Positions 4,325 to 42,563 of a DNA stretch of 42,780 bases are shown here, in pieces (the first letter of the stretch is position 1; each line of letters opens with the position of its first letter). Under the pieces are notes generated by a model. That model saw only the letters and a program-made list of their open reading frames with translations, was not told the origin of the DNA and searched no databases. The stretch comes from Enterobacteria phage mEp043 c-1: sequence record NC_019706.1, one strand, 5' to 3'. Both the position numbers and the translations under genes were made by a program.

Positions 4325-6271
4325 ATGCAGGCCAGCAATAACAGCGAGGCCGACATTTTTATCTATGACGAAATCGGGTACTGGGGCGTAACGGCGAAAC
4401 AGTTCGTCAATGATCTCCGGGCACTTGGGGACGTCACCCACATCAACCTTTATATCAACTCGCCAGGTGGTGATGTCTTCGACGGTATTGCTATTTATAA
4501 CGCGCTGAAGCACCACGGCGCGGCGATTACCGTGCATATCGACGGTCTCGCGGCCTCCATGGCCTCGGTGATTGCGATGGTAGGCAATCCGGTCATCATG
4601 CCTGAAAACACGATGATGATGATCCATAAGCCCTGGGGGTTTGCTGGTGGTGACGCGAGCGATATGCGCGACTATGCAGATCTTCTCGACAAGGTTGAAT
4701 CCGTTCTTATCCCGGCTTATGCGCAGAAAACCGGAAAATCCACCGAAGAAATTGCGGCAATGCTGGAGGACGAAACCTGGATGAACGGCAGCGAGTGCCT
4801 TGAACTGGGTTTTGCCGACCAGGTGACACCATCCCTTCAGGCTATGGCCTGTATTCATTCAAAACGTATTGAGGAATTTGAAAAAATGCCAAAAAGCATT
4901 CGCAACATGATCACCCCGCCGCGCAACACTACCCAGCGTGACCCGGTTATTACCCAGCCTCAGGAACCGCAGGCAAAAACAGACCCGGCACCGGATGAAA
5001 ATGTGATCCGCGCGCAGGTGTTGGCTGAGCAGAAAGCCCGTGTTAACGCTATCGGCGATCTCTTTGCCATGTTCGGCAATAAGCACATGGAACTGCAGAA
5101 TCAGTGTGTGGCCGACCCTGATTGTTCCGTCGATAAGGCGAAAGATTTGCTGCTGGCAGAACTCGGTAAAACGGCCACGCCGTCCAATAAAACCACCCAG
5201 CCGCATATTCATGCGGGCAATGGTAACTTCGTCGCGGATGGTATTCGCCAGGCACTGATGGCGCGTGCCGGGTTCGAAGGTCAGGAGCGGGATAACGTTT
5301 ATAACGGTATGACGCTGCGCGAGTATGCGCGTATGGCCCTGACTGAAAAAGGTATCGGCGTGGCCAGCTACAACCCGATGCAGATGGTTGGCCTGGCGCT
5401 GACCCACAGCACCTCTGACTTTGGCAACATTCTGCTTGATGTTGCGAACAAAGCGCTGATTCAGGGCTGGGACGAGGCGCAGGAAACCTTCGAACAGTGG
5501 ACCAAAAAAGGCCAGCTGTCGGACTTCAAAACGGCGCATCGTGTCGGCATGGGTGGTTTCCCTTCTCTGCGACAGGTTCGCGAAGGGGCTGAGTACAAGT
5601 ACATCACTACCAGTGACAAAGGCGAAACCATCGCGCTTGCCACGTATGGTGAAATCTTCTCAGTAACCCGCCAGGCGATCATCAACGACGATCTGAACCA
5701 GCTTACCGACGTACCGATGAAGATGGGGCGCGCGGCGAAAGCAACGATTGGCGATCTGGTTTACGCCATTCTGACCAAAAACCCGAAACTCTCAGACGGA
5801 AAGGCGCTGTTCCATGCCGATCACAAGAACCTGAGCTCGGGCGCAATTTCTGTGGCCAGCCTGGACGAATCGCGCAAGCTGATGCGTCTGCAGAAGGAGA
5901 GGGAGCGAACCCTGAATATCCGTCCGGCCTACATGCTGGTGCCCGTCGCCCTGGAAACTCTGGCAAATCAGACCATCAAGTCGGCCAGTGTTAAAGGTGC
6001 AGACATCAATGCCGGGATCGTTAACCCTATCCAGAACTTTGCAGAAGTCATTGCCGAACCACGCCTGGATGAAGCTGATGCGAAAGCCTGGTATCTGGCT
6101 GCCGCGAAGGGCACCGACACCATCGAGGTCGCTTATCTCAACGGCGTCGACACGCCATACATCGATCAGCAGGAAGGCTTCACCACTGATGGTATCGCCA
6201 CGAAAGTGCGTATTGATGCCGGTGTGGCGCCGCTGGACTATCGCGGCATGACCAAATCCTCTGGTCAGTAA
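4325..6271 (+). CDS. Prohead protease (ClpP/S14-like) fused to a major capsid protein domain
   Basis: First in-frame ATG after the portal stop. N-terminal region has ClpP-like motifs (INSPGGDV, GLAASMAS, MIHKPWG); C-terminal about 330 aa resemble Mu gpT-type major head subunit. The track ORF 3977-6271 has a 5' extension overlapping the portal that is probably not translated. Confidence 0.8.
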   Translation: MQASNNSEADIFIYDEIGYWGVTAKQFVNDLRALGDVTHINLYINSPGGDVFDGIAIYNALKHHGAAITVHIDGLAASMASVIAMVGNPVIMPENTMMMIHKPWGFAGGDASDMRDYADLLDKVESVLIPAYAQKTGKSTEEIAAMLEDETWMNGSECLELGFADQVTPSLQAMACIHSKRIEEFEKMPKSIRNMITPPRNTTQRDPVITQPQEPQAKTDPAPDENVIRAQVLAEQKARVNAIGDLFAMFGNKHMELQNQCVADPDCSVDKAKDLLLAELGKTATPSNKTTQPHIHAGNGNFVADGIRQALMARAGFEGQERDNVYNGMTLREYARMALTEKGIGVASYNPMQMVGLALTHSTSDFGNILLDVANKALIQGWDEAQETFEQWTKKGQLSDFKTAHRVGMGGFPSLRQVREGAEYKYITTSDKGETIALATYGEIFSVTRQAIINDDLNQLTDVPMKMGRAAKATIGDLVYAILTKNPKLSDGKALFHADHKNLSSGAISVASLDESRKLMRLQKERERTLNIRPAYMLVPVALETLANQTIKSASVKGADINAGIVNPIQNFAEVIAEPRLDEADAKAWYLAAAKGTDTIEVAYLNGVDTPYIDQQEGFTTDGIATKVRIDAGVAPLDYRGMTKSSGQ

Positions 6272-38721: not shown

Positions 38722-38906
38722 ACGCCACAATTCAAACGATACCAGAGCTTCTTATCCAGACACGAGGCAATCAGACCGAAGTGGCGAGGATGCTTTCCTG
38801 CGCAAGAGGAACAGTGCTCAAGTACAACCGAGACAGCAAAGGCGAGCGTCACGTAATAGTTAACGGCGTCCTGATGGTCAAACAGGGCAAGAGGGGAAGA
38901 CCATGA
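38718..38906 (+). CDS. ninH: NinH
   Basis: 62 aa; KTIPE.L....GNQTEVAR.L.C.RGTV.KY resembles recalled lambda NinH. Confidence 0.8.
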   Translation: MNATIQTIPELLIQTRGNQTEVARMLSCARGTVLKYNRDSKGERHVIVNGVLMVKQGKRGRP

Positions 38907-39526
38907 GACTCGAAAGCGTAGCTAAATTTCATTCGCCAAAAAGCCCGATGATGAGCGACTCACCACGGGCTACGGCTTCTGACTCTCTTTCCGGTACTGA
39001 TGTGATGGCTGCTATGGGGATGGCGCAATCACAAGCCGGATTCGGAATGGCTGCATTCTGTGGCAAGCACGAACTCAGCCAGAACGACAAACAAAAGGCT
39101 ATCAACTATCTGATGCAATTTGCACACAAGGTATCGGGGAAATACCGAGGTGTGGCAAAGCTCGAAGGAAATACTAAGGCAAAGGTACTGCAAGTGCTCG
39201 CAACATTCGCTTATGCGGATTATTGCCGTAGTGCCGCGACGCCGGGGGCAAGATGCAGAGATTGCCATGGTACAGGCCGTGCGGTTGATATTGCCAAAAC
39301 AGAGCTGTGGGGGAGAGTTGTCGAGAAAGAGTGCGGAAGATGCAAAGGCGTCGGCTATTCAAGGATGCCAGCAAGCGCAGCATATCGCGCTGTAACGATG
39401 CTAATCCCAAACCTTACTCAACCAACCTGGTCACGCACTGTTAAGCCGCTGTATGACGCTCTGGTGGTGCAATGCCACAAAGAAGAGTCAATCGCAGACA
39501 ACATTTTGAATGCGGTCACACGTTAG
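38903..39526 (+). CDS. Q: Late antiterminator Q
   Basis: 207 aa; appears identical or nearly so to recalled lambda Q (MRLESVAKFHSPKSPMMSDSPRATASDSLSGTDVMAAMGMAQSQAGFGMAAFCGKHELSQNDKQKAINYLMQFAHK...). Confidence 0.95.
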   Translation: MRLESVAKFHSPKSPMMSDSPRATASDSLSGTDVMAAMGMAQSQAGFGMAAFCGKHELSQNDKQKAINYLMQFAHKVSGKYRGVAKLEGNTKAKVLQVLATFAYADYCRSAATPGARCRDCHGTGRAVDIAKTELWGRVVEKECGRCKGVGYSRMPASAAYRAVTMLIPNLTQPTWSRTVKPLYDALVVQCHKEESIADNILNAVTR

Positions 39527-39964: not shown

Positions 39965-40288
39965 ATGAAGATGCCAGAAAAACATGACCTGTTAGCCGCC
40001 ATTCTCGCGGCAAAGGAACAAGGCATCGGGGCAATCCTTGCGTTTGCAATGGCGTACCTTCGCGGCAGATATAATGGCGGTGCGTTTACAAAAACAGTAA
40101 TCGACGCAACGATGTGCGCCATTATCGCCTGGTTCATTCGTGACCTTCTCGACTTCGCCGGACTAAGTAGCAATCTCGCTTATATAACGAGCGTGTTCAT
40201 CGGCTACATCGGTACTGACTCGATTGGTTCGCTTATCAAACGCTTCGCTGCTAAAAAAGCCGGAGTAGAAGATGGTGGAAATCAATAA
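39965..40288 (+). CDS. S: Holin S (dual-start holin/antiholin)
   Basis: 107 aa; appears identical to recalled lambda S except the penultimate residue; starts ATG-AAG-ATG giving Met1 and Met3. Confidence 0.95.
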
Positions 40289-40748
40289 TCAACGTAAGGC
40301 GTTCCTCGATATGCTGGCGTGGTCAGAGGGAACTGATAACGGACGTCAGAAAACCAGAAATCATGGTTATGACGTCATTGTAGGAGGAGAGCTATTCACT
40401 GATTACTCCGATCACCCTCGCAAACTTGTCACGCTAAACCCCAAACTCAAATCAACAGCCGCCGGACGTTACCAGCTTCTTTCCCGTTGGTGGGATGCCT
40501 ACCGTAAGCAGCTTGGCCTGAAAGACTTCTCTCCGAAAAGCCAGGACGCTGTGGCACTGCAACAGATTAAAGAGCGTGGCGCTTTACCGATGATTGATCG
40601 CGGTGATATCCGTCAGGCAATCGACCGTTGCAGCAATATCTGGGCTTCGTTGCCCGGGGCTGGTTATGGACAGTTCGAGCATAAGGCTGACAGCCTGATT
40701 GCAAAATTCAAAGAAGCAGGCGGAACGGTCAGAGAGATTGAGGTATGA
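40272..40748 (+). CDS. R: Endolysin R (lytic transglycosylase)
   Basis: 158 aa; near-identical to recalled lambda R. Confidence 0.95.
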
Positions 40749-41182
40749 GCAGAGTAACCGCGATTATCTCCGCTCTGGTTATCTGCATCATCGTCAGCCT
40801 GTCATGGGCGGTTAATCATTACCGTGATAACGCCATTACCTATAAAGAACAGCGCGATAAGGCCGCATTCATTATCGCTGACATGCAGAAACGTCAACGC
40901 AATGTAGCAGAACTCGACGCCAGATATACAAAGGAGCTTGCTGATGCTAACGCGACTATCGAAAGTCTCCGTGCTGATGTTTCTGCTGGTCGTAAGCGCA
41001 TGCAAGTCGCCGCCACCTGTGCAAAGTCAACGACCGGAGCCAGCAGCATGGGCGATGGAGAAAGCCCAAGACTTACAGCAGATGCTGAACTCAATTATTA
41101 CCGTCTACGAAGTGGAATCGACAGGATAACCGCGCAGGTTAACTACCTGCAGGAGTACATCAGGACGCAATGCCTTCGATGA
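40745..41182 (+). CDS. Rz: Spanin inner-membrane subunit Rz
   Basis: 145 aa; N-terminal about 35 aa match recalled lambda Rz ([33 protein letters not shown]), rest divergent. Confidence 0.9.
40938..41129 (+). CDS. Rz1: Spanin outer-membrane lipoprotein Rz1 (embedded in Rz, +1 frame)
   Basis: 63-aa ORF inside Rz; hydrophobic N-terminus with lipobox VSAC followed by a Pro-rich segment; exact start uncertain. Confidence 0.7.
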
Positions 41183-41475
41183 TAGCGATAATTCTACTCA
41201 TCATCCTTCACATCTGGCTCTGTAGACAGGGTGGTGATCACTTCTGGAGTGAATCCAGATTAAACATCTCATTGCTGATGCTTGAAGTTAAGCATATGGC
41301 GCGCGGCAAGGGGCTGCGTTGAGATAAGAGCCAGTTCATTACAAAGCCTATCTACGGGTGGGCTTGATAATGGATATCCCCGCAAGCGGATAATATGGTT
41401 TTTATCCCCTGCGGGGTATAAATAGGACTTGCAAATGCGTGGTTTATCATTTTGAAGCCAATGACAGGAGTGGGT

Positions 41476-41634
41476 ATGACACTTGAAGAACGAATTACAG
41501 CTTTAGAAAAGGCAGTCACATGCATTGTGAATGAAAAGCAAGAGGACACAACTGCCTTTGTTGATAAAATTATTCAGGAGATGCGTCAGTCCTCAGTATT
41601 TTCGCAGCTTCTAGAAAGGCCTCGTGAAGATTAG
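41476..41634 (+). CDS. Small hypothetical protein (52 aa)
   Basis: ATG with AGGAG RBS at 6-nt spacing; 3' end overlaps the convergent minus-strand ORF by 65 nt. Confidence 0.4.
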   Translation: MTLEERITALEKAVTCIVNEKQEDTTAFVDKIIQEMRQSSVFSQLLERPRED

Positions 41635-41830
41635 GGATGTTTTTAACACGTTCAGGATCAAGTTTTTCCTGGACAAATTTTGTCAACCCATCATATAAAT
41701 CTTTGTTCGGGTACAGCTCATTAACTGCTTTAATTAGTGCTCCAAAAGCAAGCTGATTTGCTATTTTTTGTACGGCTAATTCTTTTTCTAACTGCTCAAC
41801 CTTTTCTTTTAAACCAAAACCTTCTGACAT
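41570..41830 (-). CDS. Hypothetical protein (86 aa)
   Basis: ATG with AAGGAA RBS at 6-nt spacing; convergent with and overlapping 41476-41634. Confidence 0.5.
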   Translation of the reverse strand: MSEGFGLKEKVEQLEKELAVQKIANQLAFGALIKAVNELYPNKDLYDGLTKFVQEKLDPERVKNIPNLHEAFLEAAKILRTDASPE

Positions 41831-41959
41831 TTTTGATTCCTTATTCTGAGGTAATCAGCCATTACTCTTTATTAAGTGCGCCAGTGTCCCACCACCGACG
41901 GGCTGAATGCCTACATTAACCAGGGTTAAGACGAAACAACACCCTGATATTCAAACAGT

Positions 41960-41982
41960 AGCCGCCATCACGCGGCTTTTTT
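41960..41982 (+). terminator. Rho-independent terminator
   Basis: GCCGC-CATCAC-GCGGC hairpin followed by T6. Confidence 0.55.
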
Positions 41983-42022
41983 ATGCGCATCGCACGCGCA
42001 CATCGTAGAAAGTCTTTCAGCT

Positions 42023-42076
42023 GTGAGCCTGGGCAAACCGTTAACTTTCGGCGGCTTTGCCGTGCGACAGGCTCAC
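42023..42076 (+). promoter_or_regulatory. Long imperfect hairpin in the leader of the cos-proximal gene
   Basis: GTGAGCCTG-GGCAAA-CCG...CGG-C-TTTGCC-GTGCGA-CAGGCTCAC; about 18 paired bases with a 6-nt bulge; ends 20 nt before the ATG at 42096. Confidence 0.3.
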
Positions 42077-42095
42077 GCCTAAAAGGAAATAAATC

Positions 42096-42563
42096 ATGGG
42101 TCATAAAATTATCACGTTGTCCGGCGCGGCGACGGATGTTCTGTATGCGCTGTTTTTCCGTGGCGCGCTTCAGTCTGGTGATCTGCCAGCCAAATCTGGT
42201 GCTGCTGAGCTTCTAGAGCTGGGATTCGCTGAAACACGCCATACCGCGACGGAGTATCAAAAGGAAAATTATTACACCTTCCTGACCGCTGAAGGGCAGG
42301 AGTTCGCCATTAAGCACCTGGTGAATACGCGCTTTGGTGTTCCTGCTGGTGGTTATATTGGTGGCTCTGTAAATATTCAGTTTGGCCGGATAGAGAACGA
42401 CCCACGAAAAGGCTATGCCATCAATGTTGGCATCTGTCCCGAAATTAAGACCGGCGTGAAGCTATCCCCTGAAATGGTAAAAGCGATCTCAGATGTTGTG
42501 TCCGAGGAACTGAAGAAGAGTCTTCGGCCAGGTGGCACGATATGGTCAGCGCTGTCGCGATGA
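42096..42563 (+). CDS. Hypothetical protein (155 aa), cos-proximal
   Basis: ATG with AAGGAA RBS; last gene before the cos site; no motif recognised. Confidence 0.6.
   Translation: MGHKIITLSGAATDVLYALFFRGALQSGDLPAKSGAAELLELGFAETRHTATEYQKENYYTFLTAEGQEFAIKHLVNTRFGVPAGGYIGGSVNIQFGRIENDPRKGYAINVGICPEIKTGVKLSPEMVKAISDVVSEELKKSLRPGGTIWSALSR

Follow-up and report, generated by a model that had tools for sequence, protein, structure and literature searches.

The window analysed here is the whole 42,780-nucleotide (nt) stretch of Enterobacteria phage mEp043 c-1 (NC_019706.1), a lambdoid phage with a pair of small genes that follows the lysis cassette and precedes the packaging region. A 52-amino-acid (aa) open reading frame (ORF) on the plus strand and an 86-aa ORF on the minus strand converge and share 65 nt at their 3' ends, as a sequence-only reading of the window had described and as the ORF list confirmed (41476-41634 and 41570-41830). 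The ORF list gives the forward frame as a 60-aa version that begins at a TTG at 41452; the ATG at 41476 yields the 52-aa version used here. Each gene has the good ribosome-binding site that the same reading had assigned to it, a Shine-Dalgarno (SD) sequence 5 nt before ATG (AGGAG for the forward gene and TAAGGAAT for the reverse gene; Table 1). Its description of AT-rich DNA at the position of bor in phage lambda also held, since the pair has a GC content of 37.2%, against 50.8% for the whole window and 50.2% for the lysis genes, and stands about 300 nt after Rz. Over the 921 bases of 41180-42100, the sequence shows 100% identity to phages mEp213 and mEp043. The GenBank/RefSeq record of mEp213 annotates both ORFs (gp71 and gp72); the 86-aa ORF is the only one of the two in the annotation by the Prokaryotic Genome Annotation Pipeline (PGAP) and in the 2025 mEp043 record.

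The DNA that carries the pair is AT-rich and horizontally acquired, and has several attributes of a moron. It forms extra DNA between genes that related phages carry side by side, and similarity to Sf6, HK620, CUS-3 and over 2,000 Escherichia coli prophages stops about 190 nt past Rz (query positions 1-193). Its base composition is unlike that of the surrounding phage genes, and it has its own terminators, at 41961-41982 on the plus strand and, as a hairpin with a U tract, at 41500-41559 on the minus strand. The same cassette is found between tail genes M and L in two other loci (L008 and L016).

Small ORFs are frequent by chance, with 43 of at least 25 aa in the ORF list for the 3.3 kb around the pair, so the ORFs alone prove nothing and their status as genes rests on comparative data. 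On such data the 86-aa ORF is clearly coding: across six diverged copies, the ratio of non-synonymous to synonymous changes (pN/pS) is 0.22 for its non-overlapping codons, the lowest of the six frames, and the ORF keeps its full length in every complete homologue, the most distant being a Phytobacter copy with 66% identity. Word-indexed homology searches for the gene pair returned 8 and 5 clusters. The 86-aa family comprised 8 clusters at 70% identity or above in an index of 5.8 billion proteins, with all complete members 86 aa long, and 9 representatives of 72-114 aa in an exhaustive hidden Markov model (HMM) profile search of 1.84 billion proteins; it splits into two subfamilies, whose members start MSEGFGL... 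and MGSMxELE.... No annotated relative was present among the homologues from the word-indexed and exhaustive profile searches, and two Joint Genome Institute (JGI) names among them ("CSM-associated" and "phasin") seem to be mislabels assigned automatically. In a tblastn search of 50,697 phage records, the 86-aa protein matched only mEp043 and mEp213.

The 86-aa protein is acidic and soluble (maximum Kyte-Doolittle 19-residue mean 1.15), with no hydrophobic N-terminus. Its AlphaFold2 model is all-alpha, with helices at residues 3-39, 45-55, 59-63 and 66-81, and the predicted local distance difference test (pLDDT) score was 62.9 with 9 sequences and 71.6 with 13. A Foldseek search of this model against PDB and BFVD gave no match at E <1.

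The 65 nt that code on both strands are the best-conserved part of the aligned coding block, where the synonymous term pS falls to 0.09-0.20. Inside the 52-aa ORF lies the terminator-like hairpin of the reverse unit, whose arms are the reverse complements of 41551-41559 and 41508-41516 and are followed by UUUUCU. The AAGGCAGU...ACUGCCUU stem with UUUUCU forms in five of the six diverged copies and is lost in L016; the minus-strand hairpin has z-scores of -2.7 to -3.2 in four copies and a weaker one, -0.55, in the window copy. At the right end of the cassette, the stem of the plus-strand terminator shows compensatory changes across copies (GC in 21 and AU in 10 at one pair), and equivalents of this terminator are annotated in HK97 and ES18. 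It is the only plus-strand terminator 3' of the 52-aa ORF, so a forward transcript must cross the whole reverse gene and the sequence beyond it. Taken together, the terminator positions on the two strands imply transcripts that would be complementary over about 480 nt, with the reverse one covering most of the forward ORF. The antisense arrangement proposed from the 65-nt overlap is therefore borne out in the anatomy of the locus, and at considerably greater length. A promoter-like site on the plus strand at 41543-41570 was rejected because its -10 element is not conserved in homologues.

The leader beside the reverse gene

Sequence conservation continues past the start codon of the 86-aa gene, even in the most diverged of the aligned loci, through a non-coding leader of about 150 nt. 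The leader is 76-95% identical in HK97, HK022, ES18, HK633, SPN3UB and others, and contains a core of about 30 nt (GCCAGTGTCCCACCACTGACGGGCTGAA) that is nearly invariant. A 26-nt leader motif (CAGTGNNCNNNCACTGNCGGGCTGAA) occurs in at least 120 IMG/VR contigs, while a motif taken from the gene overlap occurs in 11; the core motif matches the window with one mismatch, and no match is expected by chance. In nearly all matched contigs the leader abuts the SD sequence and start codon of a minus-strand ORF, which varies by contig, and the sequence TTCCTTA beside the start codon is conserved across unrelated reverse ORFs. The leader usually, though not always, ends in a plus-strand terminator. The near-invariance of about 30 nt suggests a sequence-specific partner, which may be a protein or an RNA.

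The DNA that follows the terminator on the right varies from copy to copy, so any promoter common to the reverse genes must be inside the leader, and by exclusion we place a putative reverse-gene promoter there. A sigma-54-like sequence seen in the leader by eye (TGGCGC-N5-GCGCA) was rejected as a candidate because the window lacks its -12 part, which falls in a linker that varies.

The leader is also predicted to fold, into a nested stem that takes in a first hairpin, a second hairpin and an A/U-rich linker that leads to the terminator (Table 1). In an alignment of 36 sequences, 89% of cells pair in the predicted helices, compared with 29-43% when the partners are slid. Covariation outside the terminator is slight, and its support for the fold is thin because most pairs never vary; an alternative hairpin beside the SD sequence (CAGAGG...CCTCTG) shows some compensatory change. 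Rfam searches of 41200-42150 at E up to 10 returned only sub-threshold matches. One of these, to isrK (RF01394), scored 17.6 bits (E 0.33) against a gathering score of 50 and is kept as a lead only; another, to mir-2767, merely reflects the minus-strand hairpin and was set aside.

These properties raise the possibility that the key product of the cassette is a structured plus-strand RNA of about 130 nt (41848-41982), which would be the 3'-terminal part of the forward or late transcript and act as an IsrK-like small RNA (sRNA) of the Hfq type or as a stability or processing element, with the ORFs as cargo. The excess pairing of the predicted helices would fit such an RNA, as would the conservation of the core beyond what a helix needs and the order of hairpin, A/U-rich linker and terminator with U tract. 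G.T exceeds A.C by 115 to 34 in the paired columns, and one pair is G.U in 31 of the 36 sequences. IsrK of the Salmonella prophage Gifsy-1 lies 5' of orf45-anrP in the same orientation and pairs with its own read-through transcript (Hershko-Shalev et al., 2016; PMC4825925); it resembles the leader as a prophage module of hairpin, linker and terminator, and the weak match lies on the terminator's strand. However, the match is far under threshold and the window locus has no such downstream partner. Further points against an RNA as the key product are the near-absence of covariation outside the terminator, the loss of the terminator from some copies, and the lack of a conserved plus-strand promoter, the DNA to the left of the leader being the variable reverse gene. 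The reverse genes have their SD sequence and start codon exactly at the left edge of the leader, an indication of a role on the minus strand. We regard this explanation as unlikely in its own right; it is compatible with the two-gene switch proposed below, and the two are not exclusive.

The forward gene and the cargo of related cassettes

Comparison of copies shows the 52-aa ORF to be a protein-coding gene. All six diverged copies retain its ATG, SD sequence and open frame, even one with an in-frame deletion of 15 nt, and an SD-like GGAG/GAGG site precedes the ATG in every one. Independent gene callers found the ORF next to nearly every homologue. An N-terminal motif, MTLExRVxALE, opens the forward ORF in 28 distinct upstream contexts in which the remaining sequence and the partner genes differ; more fully it reads MTLE(E/Q)RV(E/T)ALE(K), corresponds to 41476-41517 of the window, and begins ORFs of 50-130 aa. 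Across 21 distinct forward coding sequences, Leu3, Arg6 and Glu11 are invariant and are specified by four, three and two codons, respectively, and entropy is 1.14 bits at codon position 3, against 0.63 and 0.47 bits at positions 1 and 2. Synonymous codons for invariant residues, together with this excess at position 3, indicate selection on the forward N-terminus at the level of protein. The 52-aa protein is soluble, with a net charge of -4 and a maximum Kyte-Doolittle 19-residue mean of 0.45, and we read its hydrophobic residues at positions 3, 7, 10 and 14 as fitting a coiled-coil heptad. No Pfam family corresponds to the motif; the whole protein gave a match to a tail-assembly-chaperone family (E 0.014, 16 bits) that is under the cut-off of 26. 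The idea that the forward N-terminus is a mere mirror image of the U tract of the reverse terminator is true of this cassette, but fails for cassettes in which the forward ORF starts at least 300 nt from the reverse stop.

It could be argued that only the 86-aa gene matters, and that the 52-aa ORF has no role as a protein and is kept because its DNA holds the 3' end and terminator of the reverse unit. The arms and U tract of the reverse terminator do lie inside the ORF, PGAP and the 2025 mEp043 annotation do not call it, and the pN/pS of its 31 non-overlapping codons, at 0.59, is no better than that of an antisense frame, a value that does not discriminate. This explanation would have to account for a start codon, SD sequence and frame that stay intact in every diverged copy, in-frame deletion included, and for an N-terminal motif that recurs, with its synonymous codons and twofold entropy at position 3, in 21 distinct sequences whose reverse genes and terminators differ. 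The forward ORFs of other cassettes also reach far past any reverse terminator. We therefore consider it quite unlikely.

The at least 120 leader-bearing viral contigs yielded 115 distinct element contexts. A reverse ORF was called in 108 of these; the ORFs are 65-210 aa long, fall into at least 19 unrelated families, and are mostly of unknown function. By the criteria of our script, 106 contexts also have a forward ORF whose end coincides with, or is close to, the 3' end of the reverse gene. Forward and reverse families are mostly co-inherited (for example, in 32 of 34, 8 of 8 and 6 of 6 loci). When ten reverse and ten forward proteins of other cassettes were searched against Pfam, PHROGs and PADLOC, only an aspartyl-protease-like domain, DUF1883 and DUF1327 were recovered; one reverse family is aspartyl-protease-like and another carries DUF1883. 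The leader occurs at eight or more late-operon junctions, and the genes to the right of its terminator include gpL, J, the tape measure gene, a Nu1-like terminase subunit, endolysin, a glycosyltransferase-like gene and, in the window, a gene of 155 aa. This variety of right-hand genes identifies the unit as a portable cassette.

Some phages carry two leader cassettes in one genome, as in locus L038 (copies at 2299 and 4351) and in SPN3UB (two places). One of the cargoes in L038 is an aspartyl protease of 154 aa, retropepsin-like (Pfam Asp_protease_2, E 1e-5), whose forward partner of 53 aa begins MTLAERV.... The commonest junction in the IMG/VR sample is between genes of 396 and 196 aa (e.g., L036, L039, L128 and L134), which are glycosyltransferase-like by eye only, from the DxD-like motifs "LWDDDA" and "LEDDA". 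The exact cassette was found in 4 of 5,426 complete E. coli genomes, where it lies 3' of a KilA-N gene (L003, E. coli O68:H12 chromosome, 5001-5764), and megablast found the leader consensus in only 6 genomes. From these counts, the class seems far commoner in other Enterobacterales (Enterobacter, Salmonella and Phytobacter) than in E. coli.

Many of these insertions are among tail genes (M-L, before J, or before the tape measure gene, which together account for most cassettes), and both proteins might accordingly act in the lytic cycle or in virion assembly, for instance as accessory tail or assembly factors, with the reverse orientation incidental. The sub-threshold chaperone match of the 52-aa protein would suit such a role. 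A gene that opposes Q-driven late transcription is nevertheless badly placed for late expression, close relatives that lack the cassette make normal virions, cassettes also lie outside the tail regions (behind the lysis genes in the window, and ahead of endolysin or terminase genes in other copies), and the reverse families show high diversity and look non-essential. Such a role is, in our judgement, very unlikely.

Comparison with known systems and neighbouring features

As judged from sequence comparison, the pair is a further member of the moron/reverse-moron class of HK97 and HK022, with which it shares its frame and not its proteins. In HK97, gp22 ("moron product", plus strand) and gp23 ("reverse moron product", minus strand and also 86 aa) overlap by 123 nt; in HK022, gp22 and gp23 ("srb") overlap by 81 nt; and in ES18, gp24 and gp25 ("possible moron") are adjacent, with a reverse terminator annotated inside gene 24. 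All three pairs resemble that of the window in having the same leader of about 150 nt (76-86% identical to the consensus) and a plus-strand terminator inside the late operon, and the reverse genes of HK97 and HK022 have clean minus-strand terminators at their stops, in the same relative place as in the window. The insertion sites differ, being post-lysis in the window, I-J in HK97 and HK022, and M-L in ES18. The proteins of these pairs are unrelated in sequence to those of the window, and the class is defined by its frame and not by its cargo. The searchable literature yielded nothing on the phrase "reverse moron", on the functions of the HK97, HK022 and ES18 pairs, or on HK022 "srb". The moron concept itself is said to have originated with Juhala et al. 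in 2000 (J Mol Biol 299:27).

The closest functional parallel comes from phage phi80. Its TaiEcA protein is encoded by a reverse gene in the Q-controlled late operon, is made in the lysogen, and blocks the tail assembly of incoming phages, while AtiEcA, the product of a small forward late gene, is a counter-defence that protects phi80 itself; the pair forms a "noncontiguous operon", and expression of Q lowers TaiEcA (He et al., 2024, Nat Commun; PMC11364771). In both phages a reverse gene lies in the Q operon beside a small forward gene, in a slot between the lysis genes and a gene like phi80 x171.28 or N15 gp59 before cos. Just after atiEcA in phi80 (NC_021190, locus L156, 45190-45260), a remnant of the right part of the leader (CAGG...CCTGATATAAAGACAG) is followed by the flank that is present in the window (GCGCATCGCACGCGCAC...), and this remnant and shared downstream flank place the phi80 pair in the same slot. 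The proteins are of different sizes (204 aa for TaiEcA and 76 aa for AtiEcA, against 86 and 52 aa), and inhibition of tail assembly is a trait of TaiEcA that is not implied for the 86-aa protein.

Lambda bor and lom are single-gene morons expressed from the prophage, without dependence on the lytic programme, and bor encodes a lipoprotein with a signal sequence. The reverse gene of the window resembles bor in its position after Rz, its orientation opposite to late transcription, and its accessory, horizontally acquired character; it differs in that the 86-aa protein lacks a hydrophobic N-terminus. To our knowledge, bor has neither a forward partner ORF nor a shared leader element.

The sequence-only reading had likened the convergent overlap to a toxin-antitoxin or addiction module, and its interpretation is partly supported overall: the antisense arrangement stands, and every defining feature of such modules that was tested failed (hydrophobicity, RNA antidote, gene order and Pfam/PADLOC matches). 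The homology and structure searches it had called for found no toxin-antitoxin relative and no Pfam, PADLOC, PDB or fold match for either protein. The least probable of the explanations is thus one in which a toxic product or RNA is counteracted by its convergent partner through antisense, stabilizing the prophage or aborting infection: the cassette is mobile and AT-rich with extensive potential antisense RNA, like hok/sok type I loci in its overlapping antisense transcription units, and prophage morons include hokD, relE and hicAB (PMC9928086), but hok/sok pairs a hydrophobic membrane-peptide toxin with an untranslated RNA antidote, whereas both partners here are hydrophilic, acidic proteins with no membrane segment; the antisense partner is an ORF apparently under protein-level selection, with a motif kept across cassettes; the genes are convergent and not a type II co-directional operon with a DNA-binding antitoxin; neither matches toxin-antitoxin or defence models in Pfam or PADLOC; and the leader fronts very different reverse proteins (aspartyl-protease-like, DUF1883), unlike a single toxin family.

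Among the neighbouring features, two palindromes of the TATCCCC-N-GGGGATA type lie about 28 bp apart, 55-100 nt 5' of the forward gene, and are possibly an operator or hairpins. The segment is kept in Enterobacter copies L004-L011 and missing from L008 and L012, and in L048 and L145 it also comes after the terminators of other cassettes, as if cassettes could be chained. A plus-strand ORF of 50 aa (41170-41322), with a strongly hydrophobic N-terminus, overlaps the final 13 nt of Rz and matches phrog_11822 (unknown function); Sf6, HK620 and many E. coli prophages have this stretch too, with a "hypothetical protein" annotated next to Rz. The protein of 155 aa encoded before cos (42096-42563, plus strand) has no Pfam domain. 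Its N-terminal ~80 residues are 88% identical to phi80 x171.28 and about 39-43% identical to large Vi1/Cba120-like phages of Salmonella, Klebsiella and E. coli; only this part is shared and the C-terminal half differs from relatives, so the protein is a mosaic.

Table 1. Positions of the gene pair, the elements of its cassette and the neighbouring genes in the window.
Feature	Position	Strand	Basis or remark
Q antiterminator	38903-39526		5' neighbour of gene pair
Holin S	39965-40288		5' neighbour of gene pair
Lysozyme R	40272-40748		5' neighbour of gene pair
Rz	40745-41182		gene pair ~300 nt beyond, where lambda has bor
Paired palindromes ATATCCCC-N-GGATAA; TTATCCCC-N-GGGGTATAA	41374-41393; 41402-41421		sequence
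SD sequence AGGAG of forward gene	41466-41470	+	5 nt before ATG
Forward moron gene, 52 aa, MTLEERITALEKAVTCIVNEKQEDTTAFVDKIIQEMRQSSVFSQLLERPRED	41476-41634	+	ORF from ATG; mEp213 gp71
Terminator-like hairpin and U tract of reverse unit	41500-41559	-	folding; inside 52-aa ORF
Region coding on both strands	41570-41634	both	65 nt, 3' ends of both genes
Reverse moron gene, 86 aa	41570-41830	-	ORF from ATG; mEp213 gp72; WP_016063087.1
Conserved non-coding leader, ~150 nt	41831-41985		from reverse start codon to plus-strand terminator
SD sequence TAAGGAAT of reverse gene	41836-41843	-	5 nt before ATG (41830-41828); left edge of leader
Candidate leader stem GAGGT/ACATT	41848-41852/41913-41917		predicted fold; nested with next stem
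Candidate leader stem TCAGCC/GGCTGA	41855-41860/41901-41906		predicted fold
Candidate leader hairpins	41878-41901; 41920-41947		predicted fold
A/U-rich linker of leader	41948-41960		between second hairpin and terminator
Intrinsic terminator GCCGCC-ATCA-CGCGGC + T6	41961-41982	+	terminator scan; cassette right end

A proposed switch between lysogeny and lysis

With moderate confidence, we propose that the cassette (about 41460-41985) is a two-gene moron in the Q-dependent late operon, with a reverse gene that is expressed in the lysogen, probably for phage defence or exclusion, and that is silenced by late transcription, which would make the forward protein, a possible antagonist. Such a lysogeny/lysis switch is the best model, and its logic is that shown experimentally for TaiEcA and AtiEcA of phi80. 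In the lysogen, a weak or non-consensus promoter within the leader would drive transcription of the reverse gene by itself, and the 86-aa product, a small, soluble and helical protein, would serve the prophage or the host, most likely in defence against other phages or in their exclusion. Once the prophage is induced, late transcription antiterminated by Q would cross the cassette, ignoring the terminator at its right end, and translation of the late transcript would yield the 52-aa forward protein. The same transcription would shut off the reverse gene through polymerase collision, antisense RNA or both, and the forward protein may also neutralize reverse protein that is already present, so sparing the phage's own lytic cycle.

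Several observations weigh against this proposal. The phi80 genes are divergent, with overlapping 5' ends, and not convergent; BLASTP of TaiEcA against all collected reverse and forward ORFs gave no match at E up to 1, and the best match of AtiEcA to the collected ORFs had an E of 0.32 over 29 residues. Neither protein of the pair matches Pfam or PADLOC models, or PDB by sequence, and PHROGs offers only families of unknown function built from mEp records. The defence role is assigned by analogy, because the proteins match nothing of known function and bear no resemblance to TaiEcA or AtiEcA. The pairing of forward with reverse families is not strictly one-to-one, and the occurrence of the same forward N-terminus with different reverse partners is a poor fit to a purely cognate inhibitor. 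There is no consensus sigma-70 promoter on the minus strand in the leaders of the window, HK97, HK022 and ES18, and our own sigma-70 scan over 84 leader copies found no consistent site; the best candidate has a conserved -10-like TAA(G/A/T)GT (TAATGT at 41912-41917 in the window) and a poor -35. The excess of G.T over A.C in the paired leader columns slightly favours a plus-strand RNA, and a literature search found no transcript data for the phage or its relatives.

A broader and more tentative reading, which we hold to be possible rather than probable, is that the pair is one allele of a large undescribed exchange system of enterobacterial temperate phages, with a fixed frame and a hypervariable middle. 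The frame would consist, on the left, of an SD sequence and the forward coiled-coil peptide MTLExRVxALE and, on the right, of the nearly invariant, probably structured leader and its terminator. Between them would lie the forward C-terminus and the reverse gene. Such a frame would supply both the homology for swapping cargo, from phage to phage and from junction to junction, and a switch that is on in lysogeny and off in lysis, in which reverse expression would be driven from the leader and silenced in antisense by late read-through; the cargo would comprise dozens of new small proteins for defence or exclusion, each with a late partner. The searchable literature, which excluded Juhala et al. 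2000, held no description of a leader and a forward N-terminus that bracket hypervariable cargo.

Taken alone, the pair is two more hypothetical phage proteins, and it belongs to a type of cassette that was annotated 25 years ago and never explained. Because the leader marks so many phage contigs and families of small reverse genes, this one motif can be used to harvest a catalogue of candidate prophage-expressed functions together with their late-expressed partners. The phages mEp043, mEp213, HK97 and HK022 all grow on E. coli K-12, which makes the proposed switch directly testable, as it was for the phi80 pair. If the leader is indeed a portable promoter and RNA element, this would explain how cassettes move between unrelated junctions of the late operon.

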